From the sequence record PZ583742.1: a stretch of DNA of 64,000 nt; one strand, written 5' to 3'. A program made the position numbers and the translations under genes. Positions within the stretch are counted from its first letter, which is position 1. Every line of letters begins with the position of its first letter. Shown piece after piece: positions 376 through 60,838 of this stretch. The notes beneath the pieces are model-generated. The model was not told the DNA's origin, searched no databases, and saw only the letters and a program-made list of their open reading frames with translations. This DNA is from a phage.

Positions 376-405
376 GTTTACATACCTCTGGGAACATGAT
401 AGTAT
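376..405 (+). promoter_or_regulatory. early promoter-like element (GTTTAC -35, TAGTAT -10) overlapping an inverted repeat
   Basis: GTTTAC at 376-381, TAGTAT about 18 nt downstream; 8-bp inverted repeat gggaacat/atgttccc flanks the -10. Confidence 0.45.
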
Positions 406-447
406 GTTCCCTGGATAATAAAACTTTAACCATCTGAAGGAAATACC

Positions 448-1041
448 ATGAATACTTTAAAGAAAATTGTTGAATTCATCCGCTCCAAACTGGGTACTGC
501 AATGGCAAAAAACCTGTCTATTGAAGACCAATATACTCAAGCGGCTTCTACCCTAATTGACAAGATTACTGAGCTCCAGACTGCCCATGTTAAGTCTGTT
601 AATGAAGAAAAACGCATCCGCGAGTTAGCGAATGAAAAAGACCAGCTTGCTTCTTCTAAAGAACGTGAAATTCGTAAACTGATTGCTGATGGTGCTGATG
701 TTCAAGTTCATGCTAAACTAGGTCTCCTGTATCGTCGCACTGCTAAACAACTTCGTAAGAAGGCAGATGATTATGTTGAAATGCGTAATGAAATTAAATT
801 GAAAGTTAAAGAGCTGGATGACTCTCGTCAGGAACTAGCTGTTAAACTGGAATACATCCGCGAAACCCGTAAGGTGTCTGCACTGGGTATTGCAACCGCA
901 GATGATGTTGTTGAAATCGCTGCATTGACTAAGATTGATATTGAAGACACTCTGATGCGTGTTGAAACCTTCAAAGGTCCACAGGTTGGTGTGGATACCA
1001 CATCCGCTGACATTGAAGAATACATCAATTCACTTAAGTAA
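448..1041 (+). CDS. coiled-coil protein (long amphipathic helices, PspA/IM30-like in character)
   Basis: 197 aa ORF, charged heptad-rich sequence; preceded by early-promoter-like GTTTAC..TAGTAT and RBS GAAGGAAA. Confidence 0.5.
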
Positions 1042-3603: not shown

Positions 3604-3635
3604 AGTGTACAAGTCTAAAGAAACGGAGTATCATT
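3604..3635 (+). promoter_or_regulatory. early promoter-like element TGTACA-N17-TATCAT
   Basis: One of at least 10 copies of the recurring motif (a)GTGTACA-N16/17-(T/C)AT(A/C/G)AT upstream of gene starts. Confidence 0.45.
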
Positions 3636-3662
3636 ATCTCGTCAACTAATGAGGAAAATATT

Positions 3663-3830
3663 ATGTATAATGTTCTTATTGTTTTTGTCACTCACCCGCA
3701 AGGTGGAGTAAGACAGAATACTTCTCAAGTGGTTCAATTTTCTTCACTAGAGGCCGCCAATCTTGCTGCTTCACGAATTGAAGCGAAAAAATCGGCACTT
3801 GGAAAATATGAAGTAACTCGTCTTTACTAA
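3663..3830 (+). CDS. small hypothetical protein (55 aa)
   Basis: Short ORF flanked by repeated RBS module AATGAGGAAAATATTATG; below ORF-track size cutoff. Confidence 0.3.
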   Translation: MYNVLIVFVTHPQGGVRQNTSQVVQFSSLEAANLAASRIEAKKSALGKYEVTRLY

Positions 3831-3843
3831 TGAGGAAAATATT

Positions 3844-4803: not shown

Positions 4804-4862
4804 GTGTGTACATCCAAATGAGGCTATGACATAATGGTCCCACAATCAATGAGGAAAATATC

Positions 4863-7344: not shown

Positions 7345-7614
7345 ATGAAAACGTATCAAGAATTTTTGGCTGAATCTGTATTAAATGAATCAGATGAAAG
7401 CCGCATGGCATTTTTAGCTAAGAAAGAAGGCTTTGAGTTTACTTCTATTAAAAAAGTTAATGGAACTTCATTTAAAGTTGGTGATTGGACCTTTGGTAAC
7501 AAAGGAAGTGGCCAGTGGCAAATTGTAGATAAATCTGGTAAAGAAGTGGATTATTTGTTTAATCAGAAATTGGGTGATATCGCTAAACTTATGGGTCAAT
7601 ACTCTAAGAAATGA
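7345..7614 (+). CDS. internal protein (IP) with capsid-targeting sequence
   Basis: N-terminus MKTYQEFLAE matches T4 internal-protein capsid-targeting sequence with L-x-E protease site; sits between e and denV where T4 has ipIII/ipII. Confidence 0.65.
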   Translation: MKTYQEFLAESVLNESDESRMAFLAKKEGFEFTSIKKVNGTSFKVGDWTFGNKGSGQWQIVDKSGKEVDYLFNQKLGDIAKLMGQYSKK

Positions 7615-7645
7615 TGTACATCTCCAAATGATAGGGTTATAATGA
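7613..7645 (+). promoter_or_regulatory. early promoter-like element TGTACA-N17-TATAAT with hairpin around -10, upstream of denV
   Basis: TGTACA 7615-7620, TATAAT 7638-7643; inverted repeat tagggt/acccta brackets the -10. Confidence 0.5.
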
Positions 7646-7669
7646 CCCTATCAACTATGGAGAACAAAC

Positions 7670-8086
7670 ATGACACGTATTAACTTAACCCTGGTATCTG
7701 AACTTGCTGACCAACACCTTATGGCTGAATATCGTGAGCTTCCTCGCGTGTTTGGTGCGGTTCGCAAACATGTACAAAATGGTAAAAAGGTTTCTGACTT
7801 TAAAATCCCATCATCTTTTCTTTTAGGGACTGGTCATGTCACCTTCTTTTATGATAAACTTTTGTTCCTTAAAAACCGCCATCAAGAACTTATTGCGGAA
7901 TGTTTAAAGCGAGGGTTTAACATAAAAGATATTTCTACCCAAGATTTAAATGATATTCCTGATGAATGGAAGAATGATTATCAACCATCAATCTGGTCAA
8001 TTGAAATCAGTCAAGCCAGACTGAATGAGAAAATTTCTCAAAAGCCTACCTGGTACAAATACTATGGGAAAGCAGTGTACGCTTAA
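7670..8086 (+). CDS. denV: endonuclease V (pyrimidine dimer DNA glycosylase)
   Basis: [45 protein letters not shown] matches T4 DenV. Confidence 0.95.
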
Positions 8087-9649: not shown

Positions 9650-10229
<580 letters not shown>

Positions 10230-10285
10230 TGTACAAGCAGGTTGAAATGAGTTATGATTATCCCATCAAACAAAAGGAGATAATC

Positions 10286-10744
10286 ATGACTACTATCGAT
10301 TCAAGTGTTTACATTCGCCGCAATAAACTTCGTCGCATTTTTGAAACGGAGTTCCTCAAAATTAATAATGCTATCAACAAGGCTTGTAAAGAAGCAGGCC
10401 TTGAGGCATTCTTCATTAAGTACAGTCCGCACCTGTTGGACCGTGCAATCCAACGTGAAATTGATGAACAATATGTTTTTGACTTGTTTGGAAAAATCAC
10501 ACCACATGTAAAAGAAATCGTTGAATTCCTGGAGATGAAACCGCTCCCGGAAGTTGAAGCACAAATTGACCCGAATGTGAACTATCGTCCACTTCGTCTG
10601 GAAATCACAGACAAGAACCTATGGTTAGGAATGACAGTTAACCCAGCTCTTCCTGGGAAGTCTCCGACCATGTGTTGTCGTATGGCGTTTGTTAACTCTA
10701 ATCGTCTGGAAGGAAAAATTAGCACAAAAGTGATTTATATCTAA
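10286..10744 (+). CDS. regB: RegB endoribonuclease
   Basis: YIRRNKLRR.FE.EF..HLLDRAIQREIDE.YVF..RP.RLEITD.NLWLG matches T4 RegB; RBS AAAAGGAGA. Confidence 0.85.
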   Translation: MTTIDSSVYIRRNKLRRIFETEFLKINNAINKACKEAGLEAFFIKYSPHLLDRAIQREIDEQYVFDLFGKITPHVKEIVEFLEMKPLPEVEAQIDPNVNYRPLRLEITDKNLWLGMTVNPALPGKSPTMCCRMAFVNSNRLEGKISTKVIYI

Positions 10745-12495: not shown

Positions 12496-12504
12496 GAAGG
12501 TGAT

Positions 12505-13077
12505 ATGGCGAGTTTAATTTATCATTACGCAGCAATGAATGCAGGCAAAACAGCTTCATTGCTGACTGCAGCTTATTCCTATAAAGAGCGTGGAATGAGT
12601 GTGCTTTTGCTAAAACCTGTTATTGATAATCGGGACTCGGAATCTGAAATCAAATCACGTATTGGTATTAGCCAGGAAGCAAACCTGGTAACGGCCGACA
12701 TGAACCTGTTTGAATTCTATAAATGGGCCGAGTCTCAAAAGGATATCCATTGTGTCCTGGTCGATGAAGCTCAATTTTTGTTACCAGAGCAAATTGACCA
12801 GTTAGCTCAAGTGGTTGATAATTACAATATCCCCGTTATGTGTTACGGGTTAAGAACAGATTTTCGGGGTCAATTATTTCCCGGTTCAGCCAGACTTCTG
12901 GCTATTTCGGATAAACTGGTTGAATTAAAGGGCGTCTGTCATTGCGGCCGGAAAGCAACCATGACCGCGCGAGTAATCGACGGTGCTGCTGTAAAGGACG
13001 GCGAGCAAGTGTTAGTCGGTGGGAATGAATCGTACGTATCTTTATGCAGGAAACATTGGCTCGAATTAACAAGCTGA
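12505..13077 (+). CDS. tk: thymidine kinase
   Basis: P-loop NAGKTASLL, VDEAQF, C-terminal zinc motif CHCGRKA..C; typical TK1-family layout. Confidence 0.9.
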   Translation: MASLIYHYAAMNAGKTASLLTAAYSYKERGMSVLLLKPVIDNRDSESEIKSRIGISQEANLVTADMNLFEFYKWAESQKDIHCVLVDEAQFLLPEQIDQLAQVVDNYNIPVMCYGLRTDFRGQLFPGSARLLAISDKLVELKGVCHCGRKATMTARVIDGAAVKDGEQVLVGGNESYVSLCRKHWLELTS

Positions 13078-13084
13078 GGTTCGC

Positions 13085-13360
13085 ATGATATACAAGGTTT
13101 GGACGTATATCTCTATTTTTGTTATTGCTGGGATTGCATTTATCCCCACACAAACAGATAGCGAGAGATATGAAAGGGAAATTGAAATAGTAGCAAGTAC
13201 GTACCATTCTGTTAATAAAGAATGCCCGAATAAAAATGGAATAAATTTACAAAAATCACATTATATGCTGACTGTTACTAGTCCAGTGCAAAGAATATGG
13301 GTTGATAGACATTTTTCTGATTTATTTGCAATGTATTGTTTCAAATTTAAAAGATTATAA
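13085..13360 (+). CDS. small membrane protein
   Basis: N-terminal TM segment ISIFVIAGIAFIP. Confidence 0.4.
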   Translation: MIYKVWTYISIFVIAGIAFIPTQTDSERYEREIEIVASTYHSVNKECPNKNGINLQKSHYMLTVTSPVQRIWVDRHFSDLFAMYCFKFKRL

Positions 13361-13363
13361 ATA
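13356..13363 (+). promoter_or_regulatory. T4-type late promoter TATAAATA upstream of rI
   Basis: Exact TATAAATA 72 nt upstream of rI ATG. Confidence 0.55.
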
Positions 13364-13434
13364 CAGTTACTAACTAGTATTCCGCTATGTTAAGGCTGCA
13401 AAGCGTAATCATGACCAACAATAAGGAGTCCTTT

Positions 13435-13728
13435 ATGGACCTTATTCGAGGACTTTCTCTAAGTCTATTACTAATGGGCTGTTTAGGCCCAAATATGTCC
13501 TCTGCTACAGATGGTAAATTTACCCAGTATGCAGATAGTGCGATGCAAATCTATTCGCAATTCAAAGAACCCAGCGTCGAGCAGTCCGAACAATTTTGGG
13601 CTTTTATTAAAACTGAATGGAACAATAAGAGTCAATGTGTAAATGAAATCACATGTCAAATTGATGGCCGTGCTGCTGCAGTCGAATACGCTAAATTAAT
13701 GAAGGTAAAATTGGAAGATGAAATTTGA
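13435..13728 (+). CDS. rI: lysis-inhibition regulator RI (antiholin)
   Basis: 97 aa; C-terminal half SVEQSEQFWAFIKTEW..C..AVEYAKLMKVKLEDE resembles T4 RI; exact late promoter TATAAATA at 13356-13363; RBS AAGGAG. Confidence 0.7.
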   Translation: MDLIRGLSLSLLLMGCLGPNMSSATDGKFTQYADSAMQIYSQFKEPSVEQSEQFWAFIKTEWNNKSQCVNEITCQIDGRAAAVEYAKLMKVKLEDEI

Positions 13729-14101
13729 TGATTTCGTAACGGGTCGTGGGTCTGAGGTGGATTCATATATTGGGTGGTTGTTAGTCTCTTTGGCTTATTT
13801 TAAATCCGCCCATCTTGAAACCAAAAGTTACGCCCGCCATAAAGCTTATGATTTCTACTTCACAGAAATCCAAGGTCCACTCGACCAGTTCAGTGAGCAA
13901 TGGTTAGGTTACAGCGGGAAACAATACAAAGCTGCATTACCGTCCGCCTCGGACTTGCCGAAAGATACAATTTTGTTTTTAGATGAAATGATTAAAAGCT
14001 CGGAAAGAGTCTATAAAGTTGTACCTAAGGCTATTCAATCGACTCTGGACGATATCGTTGGAGTTTTCTTTCAGACTAAGTATCTGTTAACACTAGAGTA
14101 A
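13718..14101 (+). CDS. hypothetical protein
   Basis: ORF overlapping rI stop; followed by terminator hairpin. Confidence 0.45.
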   Translation: MKFDDFVTGRGSEVDSYIGWLLVSLAYFKSAHLETKSYARHKAYDFYFTEIQGPLDQFSEQWLGYSGKQYKAALPSASDLPKDTILFLDEMIKSSERVYKVVPKAIQSTLDDIVGVFFQTKYLLTLE

Positions 14102-14107
14102 TTCAAA

Positions 14108-14134
14108 AGGTCTGCCTTCGGGTGGACCTTTTTT
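14108..14134 (+). terminator. rho-independent terminator (UUCG tetraloop hairpin plus T-run)
   Basis: aggtctgcc-ttcg-ggtggacct followed by TTTTTT. Confidence 0.6.
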
Positions 14135-14135
14135 C

Positions 14136-14205
14136 ATTTAGGGGGTTTACATCCTTATAAAAAGGGTGTACTATTATCCCATCAACTACTGAGGAGAATA
14201 CAATG
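14136..14205 (+). repeat. promoter plus RBS-hairpin cassette, copy 1 (PeSL-like)
   Basis: catttagggggtttacatccttataaaaagggtgtactattatcccatcaactactgaggagaatacaatg; about 85% identical to 47341-47412. Confidence 0.6.
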
Positions 14206-14406
14206 AGAATTAAAAATATCAAGATTGATGCAGTTAATACTGGTGATGAGGTTGTTATCTATCTTAATGATTATGCAATCTTTATGGACAGTGCCACTGA
14301 TGAAGAAGTGGTTGAACTCTTGCAGAAAGCTCCATTTGAACTGTGCGAAGAAGATGCTACTCATCTTTCATCAGCAATTTTCTCATTATCATATGTGGTG
14401 GAATAA
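14203..14406 (+). CDS. hypothetical protein
   Basis: First gene after terminator/promoter/RBS cassette; RBS GAGGAGAA. Confidence 0.45.
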   Translation: MRIKNIKIDAVNTGDEVVIYLNDYAIFMDSATDEEVVELLQKAPFELCEEDATHLSSAIFSLSYVVE

Positions 14407-14600
14407 TGATTACTTTAGAACAAGCAAAGAGAATCTCTGCATTAGTTGCAGCAATTCGTGAAGCAGATGATGAAATGGCAGCTTATGCTTGGGCAGCCCC
14501 ATCTGTATCTGGCGGTAAAGAATTAGAAGCAAAAGTTGGCAATGCTCTGGAAGCATTGGATATGTTCCTTGACGAAATTATTGATTACAGGACTGCATAA
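14406..14600 (+). CDS. hypothetical protein
   Basis: ATG overlaps upstream stop (TAATG). Confidence 0.4.
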   Translation: MITLEQAKRISALVAAIREADDEMAAYAWAAPSVSGGKELEAKVGNALEALDMFLDEIIDYRTA

Positions 14601-14782
14601 TGTTAACTACTGAACAGATTGAGAAAATTATCAAACTCGCTTGGCACATTGAAAATGCATCCAATGACCTGGCTGTTGAATATTGTGAAGGTTATTCATA
14701 TTCTGGAATAGAACAGTGTAAGCGTGATTTGAATAGTTCTAAAGAAGAATTAATTGCTTATCTGAATGGGTTGAAAGAATAA
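14600..14782 (+). CDS. hypothetical protein
   Basis: ATG overlaps upstream stop. Confidence 0.4.
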   Translation: MLTTEQIEKIIKLAWHIENASNDLAVEYCEGYSYSGIEQCKRDLNSSKEELIAYLNGLKE

Positions 14783-15039
14783 TGGCTGTTGGATTTGCAA
14801 AAGATGGTGCTGAACAGTTAGAGATGGAAGCGGTTGTACAGGCCGCTATCACCCATGCGAGAGCACAGGTTGCAGTTGAAAGGGAGTCTGCTGAATTCTG
14901 TTTTGACTGCGACGAAAAAATTCCTGAAGCGCGGAGACAAGCGATTAAAGGTGTGATATATTGTGTTGGTTGTCAATCAATGCATGATGAAATTTTTAAA
15001 CGTGAACCAAGAAATTGTTGGCACAGGAGCATGAGATGA
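14782..15039 (+). CDS. DksA/TraR-type C4 zinc-finger protein
   Basis: CFDCDEKIPEARRQAIKGVIYCVGCQ: CxxC-x17-CxxC with IPxxR, characteristic of TraR/DksA family. Confidence 0.5.
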   Translation: MAVGFAKDGAEQLEMEAVVQAAITHARAQVAVERESAEFCFDCDEKIPEARRQAIKGVIYCVGCQSMHDEIFKREPRNCWHRSMR

Positions 15040-15130
15040 TTTATTACTTAGAACCCTGGGCTTGGTCGACAATGATTATAGGTCCTATTTTAATCGGTTT
15101 ATTCTTTTCGTGGTTAGTGAGGAAAATGTA

Positions 15131-15346
15131 ATGTTATATGACCCAAGCGGCAATTCTGAAAATGGTGTGATTGTTCTGGAGCCTGAGCATCCAGTTGGTG
15201 ACGTATACCGCCCAGTTGAAGTATGCGAATGTAATTTTGTTAAAGGTAATACCGGTGGGATTTCCATTGAGCAAGATGATGATGTTATTTACCTGGATGC
15301 AAGCCAAGTAGAAGCACTTTATAGTATTTTAAAACATAACCGTTGA
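15131..15346 (+). CDS. hypothetical protein
   Basis: ATG 15131 after GAGGAAAA. Confidence 0.4.
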   Translation: MLYDPSGNSENGVIVLEPEHPVGDVYRPVEVCECNFVKGNTGGISIEQDDDVIYLDASQVEALYSILKHNR

Positions 15347-15356
15347 GGAACAGAAA

Positions 15357-15917
15357 ATGATTATTGAAACAACTGAATTGTTTGGCGAACTGACCGCTGA
15401 AGTAGTTAATAATGCAATTGAGCTTTGTCAAGAAGACGATAAAATCGTACTGACTATCCAAGATATTAAACCACTTTATGATTTAAAGGTTTTGGATAAA
15501 GACGAATATCTTAGTGGTAGTTTTAGTGGTGTATTTGATATTAACGATGATGTATGTGCTCGCATTTATAAGCACGATGGTGGGTTTAATATTGAAACAG
15601 ATGAAAAATGTCTGAGCATTAGCGATTCTGATAAATTCTTTGATTGTATTTTCAAACTGTTCCAGGAAGAATGTAAGCCAGAAGTTGAATGGAAAGTCCC
15701 AGGTCAAGATGCAGTGATTCGCTCTAGTGAAACCTTTGACGGTGACGAAGAGGAATTGAATTATAATACTGAACTGACTGTTGTTCAGCATGATGGTCGT
15801 GACCAACTATGTATTACCCAAGTACACGATGGTTTTAATGAAGTGGTATTTACTAAGGACGAGCTAAAAGTTTTAGTCTCTTATCTGAACTCTGTTATCC
15901 CAACTATGAACTCTTAA
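15357..15917 (+). CDS. acidic hypothetical protein
   Basis: 186 aa ORF with RBS GAGGAA. Confidence 0.45.
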   Translation: MIIETTELFGELTAEVVNNAIELCQEDDKIVLTIQDIKPLYDLKVLDKDEYLSGSFSGVFDINDDVCARIYKHDGGFNIETDEKCLSISDSDKFFDCIFKLFQEECKPEVEWKVPGQDAVIRSSETFDGDEEELNYNTELTVVQHDGRDQLCITQVHDGFNEVVFTKDELKVLVSYLNSVIPTMNS

Positions 15918-15927
15918 GGAAAATATT

Positions 15928-16380
15928 ATGATTATCAATGCAAACTCTTGGCACGTTAAATTACACGACCGTTTTTATGACCGTCATTCTCGACCACACT
16001 CTTTGTGTGCTTACTTCTGGAAAATGGTTTGGGCTTGTTTTGCTTGTGCTGTTGTTGCAGGTAGTATGCTTTTTGGATTAACTGTTGCAGGAGCTGGTGT
16101 ATTAGAGCATTTCTTTGTATTAAGTACTCCTGTTCTGTTGAGTCTAGGGTTTGTTTTAGGGTTGATTGCAATAGCTCTTATTATTGCGCTATCCATTGGT
16201 TTGGCATTAGGTGCGATGAATTTGCACGCATGGTATGATTTACGTAAAGAAGAAAAGGAATGGCAACGTATTCTAGCCAAACGTGAAGGAAAGGAAACTA
16301 AAGAAAACATCGTTATTCAATACATTAAAGCTCGTAAATCTAAGATGTGTCCTGTAATCCACTTCGAGGGCAAAAAATGA
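15928..16380 (+). CDS. membrane protein (2-3 TM helices, charged C-terminal tail)
   Basis: Hydrophobic segments ACFACAVVAGSMLFGLTVAGAGVL and LSLGFVLGLIAIALIIALSIGLALGA; stop overlaps start of downstream nucleotidyltransferase (ATGA). Confidence 0.5.
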   Translation: MIINANSWHVKLHDRFYDRHSRPHSLCAYFWKMVWACFACAVVAGSMLFGLTVAGAGVLEHFFVLSTPVLLSLGFVLGLIAIALIIALSIGLALGAMNLHAWYDLRKEEKEWQRILAKREGKETKENIVIQYIKARKSKMCPVIHFEGKK

Positions 16381-17387
16381 GAACAGTTATGAAAGGCTAC
16401 TTCGGTAGCCATCTTTATGGAACAAGCACTCCGGAATCTGATGTTGATTTTAAAGAAATCTTTGTTCCTCATCCGCGAGATATCCTGCTCGGAACCGCGA
16501 TGAACCATACAAACCTGAACACGAATAACACGGCTACCAAAAATACAAAAGACGATATTGACCATGAACTTTATAGCCTGAAATATTTCTTTAAACTGGC
16601 AGCCGAAGGCGAAACCGTTGCTCTGGACATGATTCACACCCCGGCTAACCTGGTTGTCAAATCCGATTTACCAGATGTATGGAAGTTTATTCAAGACAAC
16701 CGTTCGCGGTTCTATACAACTAACATGAAAGCCTATTTGGGGTACGTCCGTAAGCAAGCTTCCAAATATGGTGTTAAAGGTTCTCGATTGGCTGCACTGC
16801 GTGGTGTACTGGCAATTGTTAACCAGATTCCTGAACAGTGGGTCGATTATCAAGAAGGAATCCCTGATAGACTTCGTCGTACTAAGGTAGAAGATATCAA
16901 ACACAGACTCCCTGAAAACGAGTTCTGTGAATGGGTATTCCATAACCATGAGAAAACAGGTCCACAAACGTTCTATACTGTTCTCGGACGTAAGTACCAA
17001 ACTACTCTGTCATTAATCGAGCTCAAGCAATCTCTGAATAAACTCGACGCCGAATATGGTGAACGTGCTCGTAAAGCAGAAGCTAACGAAGGTATTGATT
17101 GGAAAGCACTGAGCCATGCTTATCGTGCAGGGTATCAATTGATGGAAATCTACCAAACAGGTGACTTGGTATTCCCATTGCGTGAAGCCTCTATCATTAA
17201 GCTGATTAAAGCTGGTGAATTACCATTTAAAGAAGTTCAAGAACTTCTTGAAGATACTGTCGATTTAGTTGAAGTTCTGGCCATCCAGGCTGCTAAGAAT
17301 GGTATGCCTGATAAGGTAGACATGAAGTTCTGGGACAAGTTTGTTGAAGAGGTATACCTTGACAACCACAATTCCTATTATCGTTAA
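16377..17387 (+). CDS. putative nucleotidyltransferase (Pol-beta superfamily fold)
   Basis: N-terminal GS-x10-DVD signature (GYFGSHLYGTSTPESDVDF) plus downstream DDIDHE; 336 aa. Confidence 0.5.
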   Translation: MRTVMKGYFGSHLYGTSTPESDVDFKEIFVPHPRDILLGTAMNHTNLNTNNTATKNTKDDIDHELYSLKYFFKLAAEGETVALDMIHTPANLVVKSDLPDVWKFIQDNRSRFYTTNMKAYLGYVRKQASKYGVKGSRLAALRGVLAIVNQIPEQWVDYQEGIPDRLRRTKVEDIKHRLPENEFCEWVFHNHEKTGPQTFYTVLGRKYQTTLSLIELKQSLNKLDAEYGERARKAEANEGIDWKALSHAYRAGYQLMEIYQTGDLVFPLREASIIKLIKAGELPFKEVQELLEDTVDLVEVLAIQAAKNGMPDKVDMKFWDKFVEEVYLDNHNSYYR

Positions 17388-17605: not shown

Positions 17606-18352
17606 TTATGAAGTCACTGTTTGTTCGGCTACTAACAATGCGGAGGTTATTGTAAAGTTGCCGCCATTTGGCATAACAGTTATAGCTGTACCATTGGTTG
17701 CCATTGCCTCATCTTTATCAATGCTAAAGAACGTTGTAAAAGACAAAATATCTGTAGCATTTTCCGGACGATTCTGTATATAAGTGTTTCCGTTGGTTCC
17801 AACGAAATTTAATGTTATACTTCGAGCTTGCGAGGCTCCTGCAAAATTACCAATAAGGTTGAGTTTAAACATTAGGCTTCTGTCTTGGTTATATGGCCAC
17901 AACTTATCATCAGTGGTTCTAAAAAACGGAGATAGAGTCCCTGCAGTCGGTGGAATCCCCTTTAAAACACTAATTATGTTTGAAGTCGTACCATTAGTTA
18001 ATAGAACGTTTATACCACTCCAAAACACCTCGGATTTTTCCCTCTTTCCTGCTGTATCAGTTAAAAAATCATCAACAGTTCCTGTATTTCCCAAGTCAAG
18101 CCATATCTGATAAGAAGATTTTCCATCCCCACCCGGTTCTCCTTTTGGTCCGGGTACACCCGGTTCTCCTTTGGGACCAGGCGGACCCGGTATCTGAGTT
18201 TCCGAGCTGGACATAGTTTGGAAAAAACGCTCTTTGCTATCTGTAGGGGTATTCGGCAACACCATAGTAGAACCAAACAAATACCAATTATCAGCCAAGG
18301 CAGCCTGGACTTTTTCATTGAGTTCATCAACAGTTCTTCCGGATAAAATCAT
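17606..18352 (-). CDS. collagen-like repeat protein with tail-fibre-type motif and beta-rich C-terminal domain
   Basis: Minus-strand 248 aa ORF with RBS AAAGGAG 8 nt before ATG; seven G-X-Y triplets (GPPGPKGEPGVPGPKGEPGGDG) followed by KSSYQIWLDLGNTGTVDDFL, then N/T/S/G-rich C-terminal domain. Confidence 0.7.
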   Translation of the reverse strand: MILSGRTVDELNEKVQAALADNWYLFGSTMVLPNTPTDSKERFFQTMSSSETQIPGPPGPKGEPGVPGPKGEPGGDGKSSYQIWLDLGNTGTVDDFLTDTAGKREKSEVFWSGINVLLTNGTTSNIISVLKGIPPTAGTLSPFFRTTDDKLWPYNQDRSLMFKLNLIGNFAGASQARSITLNFVGTNGNTYIQNRPENATDILSFTTFFSIDKDEAMATNGTAITVMPNGGNFTITSALLVAEQTVTS

Positions 18353-18397: not shown

Positions 18398-18429
18398 TGT
18401 GTACAACCAGATGGTCATGATGCATAATG
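18398..18429 (+). promoter_or_regulatory. early promoter-like element TGTACA-N17-CATAAT
   Basis: TGTACA 18400-18405, CATAAT 18423-18428; lies in the divergent region between minus-strand collagen-like gene and + strand genes. Confidence 0.45.
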
Positions 18430-18469
18430 ATTCCATACTGAGTTACCAAATAAACAAACGGAGAATAAA

Positions 18470-18676
18470 ATGTTAGAATTAATCAAAGCTGCTGGTGAAA
18501 AAGGTCTGATGGTTAACACTCGTGACCCTGAACAACGTCAAGCATTTGGTGAGTTAAAAGCCAAAGGTCTGGTTAAAGCATCCCTTGGTATTGGTAATGC
18601 TTTGCGTGTGACTTTGACCCCTGCAGGTAAAGCAATGTTCTTCCCTAAACCATTACCAAAACGTCGTCGCAAGTGA
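18470..18676 (+). CDS. small basic protein
   Basis: ORF downstream of TGTACA-N17-CATAAT promoter; RBS GGAGAA. Confidence 0.45.
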   Translation: MLELIKAAGEKGLMVNTRDPEQRQAFGELKAKGLVKASLGIGNALRVTLTPAGKAMFFPKPLPKRRRK

Positions 18677-18986: not shown

Positions 18987-19018
18987 TGTGTACATGGTAT
19001 GGGGATAGACGTATAATG
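18987..19018 (+). promoter_or_regulatory. early promoter-like element TGTACA-N17-TATAAT
   Basis: TGTACA 18989-18994, TATAAT 19012-19017. Confidence 0.5.
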
Positions 19019-19053
19019 TTCCCATACTGAGTTACCAAATACTGGAGAATAAA

Positions 19054-19578
19054 ATGGAAGCCAAATCAATCTTTAATCTGATTAATTACAATAATGGTAA
19101 TTTTAAATCAGAAGCACAAAGCAAGTTCTTTAATGATGTTGCTTGTGCTGGTGAGATTACAGTATCAGGTGGTCAAACTTATAAAAACACCTGGAACTGG
19201 ATTGTGACTGTTGATTCAGTTGGTATTGTTGATGTGTATAAAAACACCAATAAAAACCGCTCCTTGTTCTGGTCAAGAGAGACTAATGCTGAGTATCAGG
19301 CGACAAGAGCAAAGAAAAATATGCCTACTGAATCTGATGTACAAAACATCAAATCAGATATCCAATATTATGATGGTCTGATTGCTGAACAACAAGTGGT
19401 GCTTGATAAGTTCAATGAAATCAAAGCATGTAAAGAGATTCCTGAATTCATGCGGGAATCAGTTAATGAACAATACAATCTCACTTCAGAGCGTATTGAA
19501 ACCTATACCAAACAAAGAGCAGAGCGCCAGGTACTCCTTCAGAAGTTTGAAGAGCGTTTAAAGACGGTTCTCGCATAA
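19054..19578 (+). CDS. hypothetical protein with C-terminal helical region
   Basis: ORF downstream of TGTACA-N17-TATAAT promoter; RBS TGGAGAA. Confidence 0.5.
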   Translation: MEAKSIFNLINYNNGNFKSEAQSKFFNDVACAGEITVSGGQTYKNTWNWIVTVDSVGIVDVYKNTNKNRSLFWSRETNAEYQATRAKKNMPTESDVQNIKSDIQYYDGLIAEQQVVLDKFNEIKACKEIPEFMRESVNEQYNLTSERIETYTKQRAERQVLLQKFEERLKTVLA

Positions 19579-21691: not shown

Positions 21692-21749
21692 TGTTTACTT
21701 CCAGGGATGGAGGGAGTATAATGAATTCCTACTTTATGAGGAGAACACT

Positions 21750-24232: not shown

Positions 24233-24348
24233 GCCATGGTATACCGCTCGATGGGAAACTGTCGAGCCAGAGGAACCTGTTTACAACGATTCCGAAATAG
24301 ATTATAATGAACCTTCAAACAATGATTTAATTGATATGGAGTTTGGAT

Positions 24349-28778: not shown

Positions 28779-28846
28779 AAAAGGGGTGTACAAGCTCCTT
28801 TGAATGATGTATCATTATCCCATCAACCACTGATGAGGAAAACATA

Positions 28847-29029
28847 ATGACTATTAACGGTAAAGAAATTAAAGTTAACCAGTATTATTCGGTAAATGGC
28901 CATGTGGTCCAAGTAACTCAATTATCAAGTCTGGATGTATGGTATCGCATTTTGGGTTGGCCTGATGCACCCTTGATGGTATGTGACCGTGGTGTATTTT
29001 GTGCAGTGGCAAAGGAAGGTAAAAAATGA
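28847..29029 (+). CDS. hypothetical protein
   Basis: Downstream of promoter/RBS-hairpin module; RBS GAGGAAAA. Confidence 0.4.
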   Translation: MTINGKEIKVNQYYSVNGHVVQVTQLSSLDVWYRILGWPDAPLMVCDRGVFCAVAKEGKK

Positions 29030-29781: not shown

Positions 29782-29853
29782 AAACCAACGGGGTCATGGT
29801 ATAATGACCCCAGGATAATAAAATTTTAATTTAATGAGACTGAGGAATATATC

Positions 29854-43077: not shown

Positions 43078-43146
43078 GTGTTTACAACGGCAATGGATTG
43101 CCGTATGATTACCTCATCAACTGATGAATAACTTAAGGATATTAAA

Positions 43147-45898: not shown

Positions 45899-47322
45899 AA
45901 ACTATTTTATCCCAGCTACTCTTTAACAAGGAATATTTTGTTAAAGTCTGGCCATATCTGAATAATACATATTTTGAAAAGGGTCCTGCAAAGACCCTTT
46001 TTAATACGATTAACGAACACGTAAAAGAATATCAAGCGGTACCAACTAAGACTGCACTTGATATCGCGCTCGACAGTTCTGACCTTTCTGAAGTCGAATA
46101 TGAAGGCACAAAGAAACTCTTAGGAGTCCTGGCCGATACTCCAGAAGACCAGGAATGGTTGGTTAAAGAAACCGAGAAGTATGTACAGAAGTCTGCGATG
46201 TTCAATGCCACATCCAGGATTATCGAAATCCAGAGTAATGCCGAACTTCCGAAAGATAAACGTGATAAACGAATCCCGGATATTGGTGCTATCACCGACA
46301 TCATGCGCGATGCATTGTCTATCTGTTTTGACTCTGCTCTGGGCCATGACTGGTTAAACGATTACGAAGCTCGATTCCAGACTTATCTGAACAAATCGAA
46401 GAAGGTTCCGTTCCGTATTAACATCCTGAATAAAATCACAAAGGGTGGGGTTGAGTACGGTACAGAGAACGTTTTACTGGCTGGGACAAACGTCGGCAAA
46501 TCCCTTGGACTTTGTTCGTTAGCGGCTGACTATCTTCAGACTGGTCATAACGTGCTTTATATAAGCATGGAAATGGCTGAAGAAGTATGTGCCAAACGTA
46601 TTGATGCCAACTTGCTGGATGTATCTCTGGATGATATTGATGAAGGTCATGTGTCATGGGCAGAATACAAAAGTAAGATGGAAAAATGGCGCGCAGCCGG
46701 GACTCTTGGGACTCTGAAGATAAAACAATATCCAACTGGTGGTGCTCATGCGGATACCTTCCGTGCATTATTGAATGAATACAAACTGAAACAAGGGTTT
46801 GTGCCGGATGTGATTATTGTTGACTACCTGGCAATCTGTGCAAGCTCAAGATTGAAAACGTTTACCGAAAACAGTTACGGCCTGATTAAAATGGTTGCAG
46901 AAGAACTTCGTGGCCTGGCGGTCGAGAAAAATGTGGTCCTGTGGACTGCAGCACAGACAACCAGGGGCGCGAACGTTGCAGCTGAGATTGATATGGCTGA
47001 CATTGCAGAATCCTTTGGTATTGCTCACACGGCCGATTTTATGTTGGGTGTTGTTGAGACTGAAGAATTCGCTCAAATGGGTCTGCAGTTAATCAAACAG
47101 CTTAAGTCTCGTTATGGTGATAAGAACTACTATAATAAATTCAAGATGGGTGTTAAGAAAGGTAATCAGCGCTGGTATGAGGTTGATGATGATTCGGCTC
47201 CTAAACAAGGCCCTACGGTTAAAGAAGCCACTGGTGAGATGAATCGCCAGGCTGAAATGAATAGACAAACCAGGGTCAACAGGAGCGACCTGGACGACCT
47301 TGCTGCTCAAATGAAATTCTAA
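45892..47322 (+). CDS. 41: replicative DNA helicase gp41 (DnaB-like)
   Basis: From GTG 45892 the N-terminus is MVETILSQLLFNKEYFVKVWPYL (T4 MVEIILSHLIFDQAYFSKVWPYM); Walker A GTNVGKSLG; HNVLYISMEMAEEVCAKRIDAN; ORF-track start is 45883. Confidence 0.95.
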   Translation: MVETILSQLLFNKEYFVKVWPYLNNTYFEKGPAKTLFNTINEHVKEYQAVPTKTALDIALDSSDLSEVEYEGTKKLLGVLADTPEDQEWLVKETEKYVQKSAMFNATSRIIEIQSNAELPKDKRDKRIPDIGAITDIMRDALSICFDSALGHDWLNDYEARFQTYLNKSKKVPFRINILNKITKGGVEYGTENVLLAGTNVGKSLGLCSLAADYLQTGHNVLYISMEMAEEVCAKRIDANLLDVSLDDIDEGHVSWAEYKSKMEKWRAAGTLGTLKIKQYPTGGAHADTFRALLNEYKLKQGFVPDVIIVDYLAICASSRLKTFTENSYGLIKMVAEELRGLAVEKNVVLWTAAQTTRGANVAAEIDMADIAESFGIAHTADFMLGVVETEEFAQMGLQLIKQLKSRYGDKNYYNKFKMGVKKGNQRWYEVDDDSAPKQGPTVKEATGEMNRQAEMNRQTRVNRSDLDDLAAQMKF

Positions 47323-47340
47323 AGACCTTCGGGTCTTTTT
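47323..47340 (+). terminator. rho-independent terminator after gene 41
   Basis: agacc-ttcg-ggtct followed by TTTTT. Confidence 0.6.
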
Positions 47341-47412
47341 CATTTAGAGGTTTACAACACCATAAAAGGGGTGTACCATTATCCCATCAACTACTGATGA
47401 GGATAATAAAAT
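47341..47412 (+). repeat. promoter plus RBS-hairpin cassette, copy 2 (PeSL-like)
   Basis: catttagaggtttacaacaccataaaaggggtgtaccattatcccatcaactactgatgaggataataaaatg. Confidence 0.6.
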
Positions 47413-47659
47413 GTTATTAGTTAATGTGCATTACCAGTTCAAATCTGAAGAAGCTCTCCAAAAGTATGCTGATATTTGTGAGCATAATAAAAGAACAGCT
47501 GCCATTGTTGGTCTGAAGCCTTTTAAAATTTTGGATTGCACCTTGAACAGAGCAAGGCGCTGGTGTAGTGTTGCCTGTCATGCTTCAGTTGAAGGGAATG
47601 ATTATTTTTTCATTACTTTCAATGCACAAGATTTTCATTTAATTAATGAATTAAAATAG
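47411..47659 (+). CDS. hypothetical protein
   Basis: First gene after terminator/promoter/RBS cassette. Confidence 0.45.
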   Translation: MLLVNVHYQFKSEEALQKYADICEHNKRTAAIVGLKPFKILDCTLNRARRWCSVACHASVEGNDYFFITFNAQDFHLINELK

Positions 47660-47689
47660 TGTACAAGCCCCTTGACTTAGGACATAATG
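47658..47689 (+). promoter_or_regulatory. early promoter-like element TGTACA-N17-CATAAT
   Basis: TGTACA 47660-47665, CATAAT 47683-47688. Confidence 0.45.
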
Positions 47690-47738
47690 ATTCCACACTG
47701 AGTTACACAATAAACCAACTGTTAAAAAGGAAAACCAT

Positions 47739-48041
47739 ATGTTTAATCAAACCGACATGAATCGTTACTATTTTGGACAATTCGCTCGCCGTGATGAAAA
47801 CTGTGCCGCTCTTATCGCATCAGGCATTCAAACTGGTAAATTAATAAAGCTCAAAAGCGATGTTCAACCTTCATCTGTTCGCAGCTCTCTTCGTGAGTAT
47901 CTGCTTGCAGGCGGTGAAGTGTACGTCATCGCCGAACCTTTTGTTAACGTGTGTGATGATTACACAATTAGTGTGACTGTTATGCACCCAACTACCGGGA
48001 AAATTCGTTGTCTGACTATGCGCAACTATGAGTTGGTGTAA
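47739..48041 (+). CDS. hypothetical protein
   Basis: Downstream of TGTACA-N17-CATAAT promoter; followed by terminator. Confidence 0.45.
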   Translation: MFNQTDMNRYYFGQFARRDENCAALIASGIQTGKLIKLKSDVQPSSVRSSLREYLLAGGEVYVIAEPFVNVCDDYTISVTVMHPTTGKIRCLTMRNYELV

Positions 48042-48050
48042 GTGAATAAA

Positions 48051-48070
48051 GGGGCTTACAGCCCCTTTTT
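48051..48070 (+). terminator. rho-independent terminator
   Basis: ggggc-ttaca-gcccc followed by TTTTT. Confidence 0.6.
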
Positions 48071-48109
48071 CTTATGTTATAATGACTCTATCAACTACTG
48101 GAGAATAAA

Positions 48110-48427
48110 ATGAAAACCATTGATTGCAAGGCAGAATACAAAGTTTATTATCATGGGTCAAGCTCTAATGCTGGAATCCAAAATATGCTTTGCCCTCCTG
48201 ATGCAACTGGTGTTCTGTCAGAAGTTGGACGTAAGAAAAACCTGAATCGTGTGTTCTTTACTGAAGATATCGGTTTGGCTAAGATTTATGCTGGACGTGC
48301 AGCTCGTTCAGTGGGAGGAGAACCTCGTCTTTATCGTGTAATTGCTCCGGTAGATGTGGTTTGTTTAAATGATACTAAAGGCGCCACGGTTTATCATGCT
48401 GAATGGGCCTTCTGCGAGGAAATCTAA
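48110..48427 (+). CDS. hypothetical protein
   Basis: RBS GGAGAA. Confidence 0.45.
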   Translation: MKTIDCKAEYKVYYHGSSSNAGIQNMLCPPDATGVLSEVGRKKNLNRVFFTEDIGLAKIYAGRAARSVGGEPRLYRVIAPVDVVCLNDTKGATVYHAEWAFCEEI

Positions 48428-48637: not shown

Positions 48638-48877
48638 ATGAATATTACCTTAATGAAACCAACTCCCGGTTCTTTTTGGAACAAATCTTTTGGTAAGCAT
48701 AATATGTTTATCCAACGCACTGTAAGCAACTGGGAACTAGTTCTTTCAGTCGGCCACAACGATTATGAACAAGAATACGTAGAGTTCTTCGATTTTCCTG
48801 TGAAGCCTACTAAGCGTCAGATTCGTCAGACAAAACGTAAATTCCGTAAAATTTATTTGGAAGACGCATTAAAATAG
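48638..48877 (+). CDS. hypothetical protein
   Basis: ORF abutting upstream stop. Confidence 0.4.
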   Translation: MNITLMKPTPGSFWNKSFGKHNMFIQRTVSNWELVLSVGHNDYEQEYVEFFDFPVKPTKRQIRQTKRKFRKIYLEDALK

Positions 48878-48934
48878 TGTACAACAAAGGGATAATGCAG
48901 TATATTATCCCTATCAACTACTGAGGAGATTGAA

Positions 48935-49228
48935 ATGAAAAAGTTATTAATCGCAGCAATTCTTACCGTAGCATCATGTGGTACAGCTCCAGTTACTGCT
49001 GGACTTGATAAAGACCTTTGTGAGTGGTCTATGACTGCGGACCAGACTGATGTTGAACATCAGATTTATGCCGATATCATGAATATTACTAAACGTGACC
49101 GCCCAGATATGGTTAAAGAAGTATCTGACCAATTGACTTCTGGTGACGTTATGCAGTATAACTATGTTCTGTATTGCGATGCTTCATTTGACAACAGCAA
49201 GATTGTTCAATGGGTTACAGGTGAATAA
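48935..49228 (+). CDS. lipoprotein
   Basis: Signal peptide plus lipobox MKKLLIAAILTVASCG; RBS GAGGAGA. Confidence 0.5.
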   Translation: MKKLLIAAILTVASCGTAPVTAGLDKDLCEWSMTADQTDVEHQIYADIMNITKRDRPDMVKEVSDQLTSGDVMQYNYVLYCDASFDNSKIVQWVTGE

Positions 49229-49667: not shown

Positions 49668-49671
49668 TATG
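49629..49671 (+). repeat. 43-bp direct repeat, copy A (gene 3' end plus next start)
   Basis: gacgaccagatttttaatgcTttcatgaagcgagAttaatatg; 41/43 identical to copy B. Confidence 0.8.
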
Positions 49672-55855: not shown

Positions 55856-56416
55856 ATGAACATCATCAAATCTGATACCGAACCCAACCAGTTAAAATTT
55901 AGTGAAATGGAGATAGCTTCATTATTTGAGTGTCGCACATCAAAGGTTGATAAGACCTTGCATTCAAACGTTAACTCAATCATCAAGTCAAGGTTATCTG
56001 TACCTGATACAGTCTTGTATCGTGGGGTTACCCAGCAAGAGATTGATTTGTTAGATGAAGCAAAAGAATCAATGCAACCTTTTGAATTTGGAAGGATAAC
56101 CTCCTTTACAGAAGACTATGGTATTGCCAGGGATTTTGCTGCAATGGAATATGTGTCAAGGACTATCATCAGATTGAATCATACAAAAGCTTTTTGTTAC
56201 CATGATGCGATGCGCAAAATCGCGCTTGACGTTCCACTGGAATTCTTCAATACTGCTTCTGGTTCCGAACAGGCAGCAACGTTAAGACGTGAAGAATACA
56301 TGGACATGATTGATTCTGAGCTTGAATGGTTTGTTCCAGTTGACCAGAAATTCGTGGTGGTTGATGCTGGATTTGTTGGTGATTATTATGTTCTTGACTG
56401 TGTACAAGAGCAATAA
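55856..56416 (+). CDS. ADP-ribosyltransferase-like protein (ModB-like by position)
   Basis: R-S-E pattern: LYRGV, SFTEDYGIARDFA, ELEWFVP; paralogue of next gene; sits between 56/soc and dda where T4 has modA/modB. Confidence 0.5.
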   Translation: MNIIKSDTEPNQLKFSEMEIASLFECRTSKVDKTLHSNVNSIIKSRLSVPDTVLYRGVTQQEIDLLDEAKESMQPFEFGRITSFTEDYGIARDFAAMEYVSRTIIRLNHTKAFCYHDAMRKIALDVPLEFFNTASGSEQAATLRREEYMDMIDSELEWFVPVDQKFVVVDAGFVGDYYVLDCVQEQ

Positions 56417-56460
56417 GACACGTTAAGATGTTCCTATCAACTACTGATGAGGATAATAAA

Positions 56461-57075
56461 ATGCTGTACACAAGTCACCAATTAGCAGAGTACATCAATG
56501 CAGTTAAATGTGAATATTTTCGTGAAAATACCCAGATTGAAATTGATGAAATTTACTCTGAGTTGGAACAGAGTACACTCTGGCAGTGTATGGAAAATAA
56601 GCCAGACACTATCCAGGAAACTTTGAACAAAATTATTCGTAAGAATTTGACTTCTGCTGTGCCTGGTAAGTTATATCGCGGGATTTCTAAGAAAACTTTG
56701 GCATATCTTGAAACCGTAGGATGTGTTGGTGCTACGATTGAGTTTGACCGTGTAATGAGTTTCTCCAAAGATTTCAGTGTTGCGCGTAACTTTGCTTCCT
56801 TTAGCTTCTATGGAACCAAAAATATTTTCTGTATTAATGATGCACCATTCGCATTTGATTATCAGGAAGCGATTTTTAAAATGATTTGTGCGGCACCTCC
56901 TGAAGAGTTCAACGGACTATATCCTGAAATAACTCGTTCTTCAAACTTGCAATTAGTAAATGATGAAGATGAGATGATGTTCCCTGCGGGAACTACGCTA
57001 CGCGTGGACTCTATTGAGAGCATTTATAGATGGGAAGACTATAAATTATGGAATCTTTCTGTTCTTTCTTACTGA
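56461..57075 (+). CDS. ADP-ribosyltransferase-like protein (ModA-like by position)
   Basis: LYRGIS, SFSKDFSVARNFA, EDEMMFPAG; paralogue of 55856..56416. Confidence 0.5.
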   Translation: MLYTSHQLAEYINAVKCEYFRENTQIEIDEIYSELEQSTLWQCMENKPDTIQETLNKIIRKNLTSAVPGKLYRGISKKTLAYLETVGCVGATIEFDRVMSFSKDFSVARNFASFSFYGTKNIFCINDAPFAFDYQEAIFKMICAAPPEEFNGLYPEITRSSNLQLVNDEDEMMFPAGTTLRVDSIESIYRWEDYKLWNLSVLSY

Positions 57076-59836: not shown

Positions 59837-60548
59837 TGCTATTATTGACTTTGAAACTCTGGGAAACGGCTCGAAGGGAGCCGTTATTGACTTGGCCCTG
59901 ATTACATTCGAATCTGACCCTGCTATTGTGGAATCATTCGAAACCCTGGTTAATCGCGGCAAACGTATTAAGTTCAGTCTCGAATACCAAAAAGGAAAAC
60001 GTCTGTTTGACACAACAACCATGGGTTGGTGGAAAAAACAATCAGCAGAAGCACGTGTTAACCTGGCCCCTTCTGCACATGATGTTGATACTCTGACCGG
60101 TATCCAACAGGCGATTGACTATCTGAATGGCAATGGAATTAACAAATACGAAAGCCTTATGTGGTGCCGTGGAATGTCTTTTGACTTCCCGTTGTTTGTT
60201 GACCTTATCCGTGACCTGCAGCGCAATGAGGGTATCCCTGAGCGTGAATTGAATACCTATGACCTGGAGCCGGTTGTATTCTGGAACCAGCGAGATATCA
60301 GGACGGCAATCGAAGCCTTGTCACTCGTCCGTAAGATGTGTGAAACCCCATTACCGAAAGGGACTTTAGATGGATTTGTGGCGCACGATTCAGTGCATGA
60401 CTGCGCGAAAGATATTCTTATGCTGAAGTATGCCCAGCGCTATGCTCTTGGTTTAGATGAAGTTCCTTCCGAAGAAGATGCAGACCCGTTATCTTTACCA
60501 AAAAAAAACGATAAAAGTAGTGTACAAGGCCAATGGAAAGAGACATAA
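59829..60548 (+). CDS. dexA: exonuclease A (DnaQ-like 3'-5' exonuclease)
   Basis: MIDAIIDFETLG exo I motif; position after dda as in T4. Confidence 0.85.
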   Translation: MIDAIIDFETLGNGSKGAVIDLALITFESDPAIVESFETLVNRGKRIKFSLEYQKGKRLFDTTTMGWWKKQSAEARVNLAPSAHDVDTLTGIQQAIDYLNGNGINKYESLMWCRGMSFDFPLFVDLIRDLQRNEGIPERELNTYDLEPVVFWNQRDIRTAIEALSLVRKMCETPLPKGTLDGFVAHDSVHDCAKDILMLKYAQRYALGLDEVPSEEDADPLSLPKKNDKSSVQGQWKET

Positions 60549-60580
60549 TTATCTCATCAACTACTGATGAGGATAACAAA

Positions 60581-60838
60581 ATGATTACTTCTTTTGAAAT
60601 TGGCCAACAATATGAAATGTCCGCTCTTCAAGCTGCTGAAGCAGGTCTGACCGAAGCGTTTGAATGTGCATTTACAAATATTCGTGGTAAAATCTTTACT
60701 GTCAATAAAATTGCGGTATATGATAAAGAAACAGACATGAACAAAGGCATCTACTTGAACGTGTCAAACGCAAAAGGTCGTCGTGAAATTATGGTTGTAC
60801 AACCTAATCAACTGGCGATGTTCAATAAGGTTGCATAA
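60581..60838 (+). CDS. hypothetical protein
   Basis: Preceded by promoter/RBS-hairpin module embedded in dexA 3' end. Confidence 0.45.
   Translation: MITSFEIGQQYEMSALQAAEAGLTEAFECAFTNIRGKIFTVNKIAVYDKETDMNKGIYLNVSNAKGRREIMVVQPNQLAMFNKVA

Follow-up and report, generated by a model that had tools for sequence, protein, structure and literature searches.

The 64,000-nt stretch of DNA analyzed here (record PZ583742.1; hereafter, the window) is the early-gene (prereplicative) arm of a phage in the genus Gaprivervirus, related to T4 and similar to VR7 and RZ. Megablast of positions 12500–16500 gave 99.9% identity to Escherichia phage vB_EcoM_RZ (RZ) and 90–97% identity to VR7, SP18, VR20, and other Gapriverviruses; across the entire window identity to RZ is mosaic at 91–99%, and identity to Gaprivervirus genomes is 91–99%. 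The gene content, read from the annotation of RZ, VR7, and SP18 together with tblastn against T4, runs through e.6, e, denV, regB, tk, rI, nrdC, nrdD, 55, 47/46, 45/44/62, regA, and 43 and continues with imm, uvsX, 41, dmd, sp, 61, 56, soc, mod, srd, dda, dexA, and motB, with essentially all genes on the + strand.

Two similar intergenic blocks are the subject of this study. Both were found where a preliminary description had placed them, at 14102–14205 (copy A, between the rI.-1 and mobD.5 orthologs) and 47321–47413 (copy B, between gene 41 and an accessory gene, ORF82), and its reading of each as a terminator followed by a promoter and a ribosome-binding site (RBS) is borne out by UUCG hairpins, sigma-70 elements, and a Shine-Dalgarno (SD) sequence in A and B (Table 1). 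In sigma-70 terms copy A is TTTACA-17-TACTAT and copy B is TTTACA-17-TACCAT. Upstream of the -35 both have an A/T-rich, UP-like region, TTTTTTCATTTAG, and T4 has TTTTTCAcaaagtt at an equal distance.

Table 1. Coordinates of copies A and B, of the array behind gene 41, and of the remaining cassettes in the window
Feature	Position	Strand	Basis and remarks
rI.-1 (MobD.6) ortholog, DUF5856, upstream of copy A	13718..14101	+	tblastn T4 59205-58822, 56% identity; Pfam PF19174, E 6e-31; stop codon 14099-14101
Copy A intrinsic terminator hairpin (predicted)	14105..14132	+	12-bp stem, UUCG tetraloop; terminator scan; -16.7 kcal/mol, z -4.6
Copy A TTTTTTCATTT	14129..14139	+	terminator U-tract (T-run 14129-14134); read from sequence
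Copy A -35 GTTTAC (TTTACA in sigma-70 frame)	14145..14150	+	promoter scans
Copy A 18-nt spacer ATCCTTATAAAAAGGGTG	14151..14168	+	haplotypes common to sites A and B in different genomes
Copy A -10 TACTAT	14169..14174	+	followed by TATCCC
Copy A leader	14181..14202	+	predicted unstructured: 0 kcal/mol, z +1.4
Copy A SD GAGGAG	14191-14196	+	within leader; ATG at 14203
mobD.5 ortholog driven by copy A (predicted)	14203..14406	+	tblastn T4 58722-58537, 52% identity; VR7 annotation mobD.5
Copy B terminator hairpin after gene 41 (predicted)	47321..47338	+	7-bp stem, UUCG loop; terminator scan; -8.1 kcal/mol, z -4.4; T-run (T5) 47336-47340
Copy B promoter core	47350..47379	+	GTTTAC (47350-47355), 18-nt spacer AACACCATAAAAGGGGTG, TACCAT (47374-47379)
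Copy B leader	47386..47410	+	SD GAGGA 47399-47403; ATG at 47411
ORF82, accessory gene driven by copy B (predicted)	47411..47659	+	junction patchily distributed
Cassette driving ORF100 (predicted)	47659..47741	+	leader type 2 (CCACACTGAGTTAC); promoter scans
Cassette driving ORF105 (predicted)	48048..48112	+	hairpin AAAGGGGCTTACAGCCCCTTT overlaps -35; -15 kcal/mol, z -4.3
Cassette upstream of sp (spackle)	48877..48937	+	orthologous to T4 promoter at 20109; stem-loop GGGATAAT/ATTATCCC across -10
Cassette upstream of e.6	376..450	+	regex + PWM scans
Cassette at hot spot	3605..3665	+	ORF55 (3663-3830) flanked by 21-nt RBS repeat
Cassette	4806-4865	+	regex + PWM scans
denV cassette	7614-7672	+	regex + PWM scans
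regB cassette	10229-10288	+	regex + PWM scans
Cassette	18399-18472	+	regex + PWM scans
nrdC.8 cassette	18988-19056	+	regex + PWM scans
nrdC.4 cassette	21693-21752	+	regex + PWM scans
Cassette upstream of 55.6 ortholog	28786..28849	+	stable within genus; T4 promoter-like site at 41706
55.2 cassette	29776-29856	+	regex + PWM scans
imm cassette	43080-43149	+	regex + PWM scans
Cassette	55799-55858	+	regex + PWM scans
Cassette between two mod (ADP-ribosylase) genes	56400..56463	+	-35 within upstream coding sequence
srd cassette	57157-57234	+	regex + PWM scans
Cassette after dexA	60520..60583	+	orthologous to T4 promoter at 8218; downstream ORF differs from T4 motB.2
motB cassette	61598-61672	+	regex + PWM scans
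cef cassette	62225-62281	+	regex + PWM scans

Copy A is an inherited junction

The predicted transcription start of copy A, judged from its spacing to the -10, is the A at 14181. By its position, set against the upstream regions of T4 promoters, TTTTTTCATTT may play a dual role, serving as the U-tract of the terminator and also, 7 nt ahead of the -35, as the T-rich stretch seen in T4 early promoters (TTTTTCAcaaagttGTTTAC). The T4 GenBank record annotates no promoter features, and T4 promoters were therefore located by pattern alone; a literature search for a paper mapping T4 transcription starts that covers mobD.5 found none. The T4 rI.-1/mobD.5 junction (∼58.72–58.82 kb) has the same flanking genes as copy A and reads GTCTCCTTCGGGAGAC-TTTTTTTCATTTTACCG-GTTTAC-N18-TACTAT-...GAGGAG...ATG, in which GTCTCCTTCGGGAGAC is the UUCG hairpin equivalent to the copy A terminator and is followed by TTTTTTTCATTT. 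The two junctions thus share the order UUCG-loop hairpin, T7CATTT, GTTTAC, 18-nt spacer, TACTAT, GAGGAG, and ATG, but differ in spacer, discriminator, and leader, for which T4 has TTTCCGTTTGAGCTGTGG and acaaccatcgg; in addition, the window phage, unlike T4, has a paralog of the core behind gene 41. The same parts in the same order indicate that copy A was inherited as a regulatory junction and does not mark the edge of an insertion. Because the structure of this junction is invariant in 11 Gaprivervirus relatives and T4, with no structural change in 8 of 8 fully compared relatives, copy A is not an insertion scar. Its -10, leader, and SD (the 3' 37 nt) are 89–92% identical in Tequatrovirus and Klebsiella T4-like phages. 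An IMG/VR search with the mobD.5 ortholog returned 3 Gapriverviruses only.

The window contains a same-strand family of cassettes

About 22 cassettes in the window, all on the same strand, follow the scheme GT(G/T)TAC-N18-TAnnAT-nnTYCCA-leader-SD-ATG. Scanning both strands of the window with an untrained regular expression (regex), G[TG][TG]TAC-N16-19-[TC]AnnnT, we found 24 sites on the + strand versus 4 on the − strand. A position weight matrix (PWM) built from 18 regex sites scored 22 + strand sites above 14, 18 of these being the training set, and no − strand site; it contributed additional sites at 7638, 29800, and 48078, one within a gene at 24303, and one at 62249 with a low score of 8.3. 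The members share one layout: an A/T-rich block precedes the -35, which is GTGTAC or GTTTAC, 18 nt of spacer separate this from TAnnAT, and a C-rich discriminator (TATCCCA, GATTCCA, or GACCCCA) is followed by the leader with its SD. At every intergenic promoter site the -10 lies 24–50 nt upstream of the ATG. In 11 of the 22 cassettes a stem-loop with z < -2 spans the spacer and the -10; counting any stem-loop raises this to about 14–15, namely those 11 plus A, B, 18423 (upstream of the -35), and 48078 (over the -35). An exact-motif scan of IMG/VR added only the 55.6 and trna.4 sites.

These features match published descriptions of T4-type early promoters, in which the -35 is GTTTAC at -36 to -31 behind an A-rich UP region, with G preferred at -33 in some relatives (PMC1524935), and which are of the UP/-35/TGn/-10 type with further consensus regions (PMC2988021). 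Early promoters of RB69, RB49, and 44RR are C-rich at -3 to -1 (PMC1524935). The genes downstream of the cassettes are orthologs of T4 prereplicative genes, and T4 (AF158101) has promoter-like sites before e.6, denV, regB, mobD.5, nrdC.8, nrdC.4, 55.6, sp, srd, and motB, as well as directly after gene 41 and after dexA, as in the window. Common ancestry with T4 accounts for most of the ∼22 predicted early-promoter sites.

The 3' part of the block had been noted before several other genes, and this recurrence is confirmed and extended. The 18-mer ATCAACTACTGATGAGGA has 6 matches at ≤3 mismatches, all on the + strand (14181, 28822, 47386, 48913, 56436, and 60556), against 0.06 expected, and the copy at 48085 is weaker (ATCAACTACTGGAGAATAAAATG). 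Further copies had gone unlisted: related leaders lie at 3642, 7651, 10264, and 43117, and CCATACTGAGTTAC, a second type of leader, is present at 18423, 19012, 47683, and 57180. T4 leaders also carry cTATCAACTACtGAGGAG. Measured against 8 relatives, identity is highest in the leaders (98.0%), followed by promoter cores (95.0%), flanking and downstream coding sequence (92.5%), and third codon positions (86.5%).

A promoter-like site, GTTTAC-N18-TATAAT at 24279–24308, lies within the 49.1 ortholog, upstream of a pin-like gene, at a position kept in T4 (∼47452), and may be an internal early promoter. The two ADP-ribosylase genes at 55856–57075 both have T4 modB, not modA, as their best tblastn match; the window pair is separated by a cassette, whereas modB and modA of T4 overlap and have no intervening promoter.

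Leaders carry a RegB/S1-like motif and are predicted to be unstructured

Strong RegB/S1 sites in T4 early translation-initiation regions have the consensus GGAGRAYARAA and are cut at GG*AG (PMC3014915). In the window cassettes a GGA(G/T)AATAAAA module abuts the ATG, with exact matches to GGA(G/U)RAYARAA at 18460, 19044, 47401, 48100, 56451, and 60571. Copy B is an exact match (GGATAATAAAA, 47401–47411), and in copy A a motif scan found 10 of 11 positions of the strong-site consensus in GGAGAATACAA (14193–14203). Exact + strand matches to GGAKRAYARAA are concentrated in cassette leaders (8 of 9), and 6 of these 8 abut the ATG; allowing one mismatch, the window as a whole has 35 matches versus 23 expected, modestly above chance. 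The leaders fold at 0 to -4.3 kcal/mol (z 0 to +1.4), no better than shuffles, and the whole window has no match to an Rfam family. As at the RegB/S1 sites of T4, the motif is part of the SD directly before the ATG, the leader is predicted to be unstructured, and regB is encoded in the region (10286–10744). Several window copies including B differ in having GGAU in place of GGAG, and cleavage here is a prediction. By analogy with T4, the RBS module may double as a shut-off site for early mRNA.

Copies A and B are more alike than other cassettes

Copies A and B, whose hairpins are of unequal length, are 82% identical over a 126-column MAFFT alignment (∼85% in the preliminary description). Their 70-nt cores show 79% ungapped identity, compared with a mean of 45% (sd 9%) among all 231 cassette pairs, of which A and B are the most similar. 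The 18-nt spacer is 72% identical between them versus 36% (sd 12%) for all 231 pairs, and it lies outside the promoter consensus, with an information content of ∼0.1–0.3 bit.

We compared 12 A-site and 8 B-site sequences, including 8 genomes with both copies. The spacer haplotypes ATCCTY, AACACC, and ATCACC were found at both sites, in different genomes; the CACC haplotype occurs at site A only in genomes that also carry B, and where B is lacking (four genomes), site A always has ATCCTC. Across the 71-column core, A and B sites have 0 fixed differences and 4 shared polymorphisms, as against 18 fixed differences in the flanks (terminator 5' arm and SD tail). Furthermore, copy B of P896 is an A/B chimera in which a B-type 5' arm is joined, in the TTCGGG loop, to an A-type hairpin 3' arm and core. 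Shared polymorphisms, the lack of any fixed core difference, and the P896 chimera are a classical signature of ectopic gene conversion between paralogs, and in these alignments they point to exchange of short tracts between copies A and B over 33 kb. Recombination among co-infecting phages could contribute to the pattern. In the P896 chimera (OL451225.1 103697–103993), where the post-gene-41 terminator combines a B-type 5' arm with an A-type 3' arm (AAAGACCCTTCGGGTGGACC), canonical hairpin pairing is disrupted, and termination there may therefore be weakened.

Rearrangements touch a minority of cassettes

The window was chained by overlap-tolerant blastn to RZ, VR7, SP18, TH40, TH41, TH44, TH54, and TH57. 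Relative to these 8 phages we counted 55 distinct indel or replacement events, of which 17 reach into a cassette junction at one end or both and 38 touch no cassette, the latter including homing-endonuclease insertions and tight ATGA-type gene junctions. Among ends located in junctions, 24 of 77 (31%) fall at cassette junctions versus 15% expected (binomial p = 3e-4), a two-fold enrichment under a per-junction null with 22 cassette junctions among 145; per intergenic nucleotide the enrichment disappears, as most of the non-coding DNA is found in cassette junctions. The events are clustered at a small number of sites; 8 of 22 cassettes touch a rearrangement (3629, 4830, 7638, 18423, 47374, 47683, 48078, and 48901) and 14 are untouched. 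The preliminary description had proposed that each copy marks a boundary at which accessory genes were inserted. Mapped against synteny breakpoints, three of the copies it named, B (47374), 48078, and 48901, do lie at variable boundaries, but the others do not: copy A, 28810, 56424, and 60544 are all untouched and stable within the genus, although the gene that follows 60544 differs from that of T4. Active gain and loss of modules is limited to part of the family, for example the array behind gene 41, which tempers the claim that cassettes mark insertions.

The array behind gene 41, headed by copy B, is truly plastic. VR7, which also has a UUCG hairpin after gene 41, lacks 47358–47678 and joins its gene-41 terminator directly to the ORF100 cassette; TH40 and TH57 lack 47323–48048; and in TH54 the interval between 47356 and 48072 is filled by 532 nt of different sequence. 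All ends of these three different indels lie within cassettes. The ORF105 cassette forms the right end of a 724-nt indel versus TH40 and TH57, and the sp cassette forms the right end of a variable block at 48611–48871. In T4, dmd directly follows gene 41. The copy B/ORF82 junction was found in only 13 phage records and is absent in VR7, TH40, TH57, and TH54; promoter B and ORF82 are flanked by an exact 10-nt direct repeat, TTTTCATTTA (47337–47346 and 47632–47641). An IMG/VR search returned no ORF82 relatives, and we rejected ORF82 as a goF paralog, the similarity being marginal (E 0.018).

Variable blocks also occur elsewhere in the window. At 3645–3846, ORF55 lies between direct repeats (21 nt) of the RBS module, ACTAATGAGGAAAATATTATG; RZ lacks ORF55 and has a single repeat copy, which looks like a repeat-mediated indel. 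The sole minus-strand gene of the window (17606–18352) codes for a collagen-like repeat followed by a tail-needle-knob domain of the Sf6 type (PF16532, E 2e-31), and this block, whose right edge is the -35 of the cassette at 18399, is missing or replaced in VR7, SP18, TH41, TH44, and TH57.

Discussion

We interpret the blocks as transcription-unit junctions of a T4-type phage, with A and B as paralogs that exchange tracts by ectopic gene conversion, and assign this reading a probability of roughly 0.87. A Rho-independent terminator, consisting of the UUCG-loop hairpin and U-tract, would end the upstream early transcript, and host sigma-70 RNA polymerase would re-initiate at the T4-type early promoter, with the A of ATCAAC as the predicted start. 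The short, probably unstructured leader would present an SD embedded in the RegB/S1 motif GGA(G/U)RAYARAA, and for this reason we propose that the early message is translatable at once and then inactivated. Most copies would be alike through common function, most being positional orthologs of T4 early promoters. The core of copy B may be A-type sequence that was placed behind the gene-41 terminator together with ORF82, and the A and B cores would keep swapping short tracts by ectopic gene conversion; this mutual exchange is probably what keeps A and B alike. Recombination between neighboring cassettes, the published mechanism for promoter-early stem-loop (PeSL) elements, would also add and remove promoter-ORF modules behind gene 41.

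Much of the family could be explained by convergent or conserved function alone, that is, by strong early promoters with the same RBS and no copying or recombination between copies. The extended consensus is common to T4 and other genera (89–92% over the 3' 37 nt), most cassettes are positional orthologs of T4 promoters, the leaders are strongly constrained, and 14 of 22 cassettes touch no rearrangement; for most pairs other than A-B this explanation remains adequate. It is contradicted for the A-B pair, where the spacer is twice as similar as in other pairs (72% versus 36%) despite lying outside the consensus, sites A and B segregate for the same 4-nt spacer haplotypes, and copy B of P896 is a chimera. 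Indels versus VR7, TH40, TH57, and TH54 that end within cassettes also count against it. As a complete account it is improbable; most cassette similarity reflects shared function and orthology, and paralogy and gene conversion account for what A and B share beyond that. The opposite extreme would make the cassettes autonomous or semi-autonomous mobile elements (PeSL+ORF mini-circles) that move accessory genes between sites or phages, every copy being an insertion scar. The patchy distribution of the ORF82 module with its 10-nt direct repeat on both sides, the ORF55 indel flanked by the 21-nt RBS repeat, the gain and loss of modules behind gene 41, and the experimental demonstration of mini-circles for RB49 and phi1 (PMC2839356) are all in keeping with mobility. 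Yet 14 cassettes, copy A among them, show no structural change, most of them at the same junctions in T4, 38 of 55 indels have no contact with a cassette, no terminal inverted repeats or recombinase are present, and ordinary homologous recombination suffices for the pattern, which makes mobile elements of this kind unlikely. A transposon or MITE was rejected since neither terminal inverted repeats nor a target-site duplication is found, only a terminator hairpin and short direct repeats in homologous cassette sequence.

Two further readings concern what the core and leader do. Complementary CATCA and TGATG segments, read from the sequence of five copies, could make the leader a structured cis-regulatory RNA, either riboswitch-like or with an SD-sequestering hairpin (CAUCA-ACUAC-UGAUG). 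We rejected leader hairpins and SD sequestration because the folds are no better than those of shuffles; the TGATG arm is also absent in copy A and in the T4 orthologs, and the window has no Rfam match, so that such an RNA is very unlikely. We give equally little credence to MotA-dependent middle promoters in place of early ones. The cassettes do lie in a prereplicative gene region, and both promoter classes commonly share a TAnnAT-type -10; however, the MotA box, (a/t)(a/t)(a/t)TGCTTtA around -30 (PMC1524935), is not seen on reading A (14135–14160) or B (47340–47365), both of which instead have GTTTAC at -36 to -31 with sigma-70 spacing.

In kind, the element is an ordinary T4-type early promoter/terminator cassette of the PeSL type, already known. 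PeSLs were named by Arbiol et al. 2010 (PMC2839356) and Comeau et al. 2014 (PMC4122927), and those of T4/PST have the consensus TTTACW-N17-TAYWAT with stem-loops just upstream of the promoter. The resemblance drawn in the preliminary description is thus correct: like the PeSLs of RB49/phi1, PST/T4, and nt-1/KVP40, the window cassettes are built from an AT-rich region, an early promoter of the sigma-70 type, a stem-loop that lies across the -10 or before it, an SD, and an ATG; they are repeated in many dispersed intergenic copies in early/hyperplastic regions and conserved over ∼70–100 bp; and indels end in them. The hairpin-loop crossover reported for RB49 PeSLs is matched by the P896 chimera. 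The window cassettes differ in belonging to another genus, in having GTGTAC as the commoner -35 form, in being for the most part stable orthologs and not indel boundaries (a PeSL trait true of B and untrue of A), and in that exchange is seen in the form of short gene-conversion tracts between copies separated by 33 kb.

Morons of lambdoid phages are promoter-ORF-terminator insertions, and the ORF82 module is likewise an accessory ORF with its own predicted promoter beside a terminator. In contrast to morons, the module has a promoter copied from one resident in the phage, and its boundaries lie within homologous repeats, which does not suggest illegitimate capture of host DNA.

The mildly new point is that genome comparison provides evidence of gene conversion across the 33 kb separating two copies. 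The analysis also places ∼22 predicted early starts and two predicted terminators in the Gaprivervirus early region, with little importance beyond annotation. More tentatively, and at somewhat below even odds, T4-type early-promoter cassettes may form a concertedly evolving multi-copy family, in which short-tract ectopic conversion acts across tens of kb with ends in the UUCG loop and leader, and in which a core with its RegB/S1 shut-off site can be copied before new ORFs such as ORF82. If so, a newly acquired gene would receive a ready-made expression program of immediate onset and quick shut-off.

A 295-aa ORF at 36506–37393, between rpbA and gene 45, has no Pfam match, is missing from 8 of 8 Gaprivervirus relatives compared (gap 36524–37384), and ends at tight gene junctions without a cassette. 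After the primase gene, a 255-aa ORF (51653–52420) that resembles T4 mobB and has a weak match to HNH is present only in the window and RZ and is probably a homing endonuclease. Finally, a 56-nt direct repeat (49623–50030; 88% identical) over the ends of two adjoining small genes, 49669–50019 and its upstream neighbor, suggests that these are tandem paralogs.
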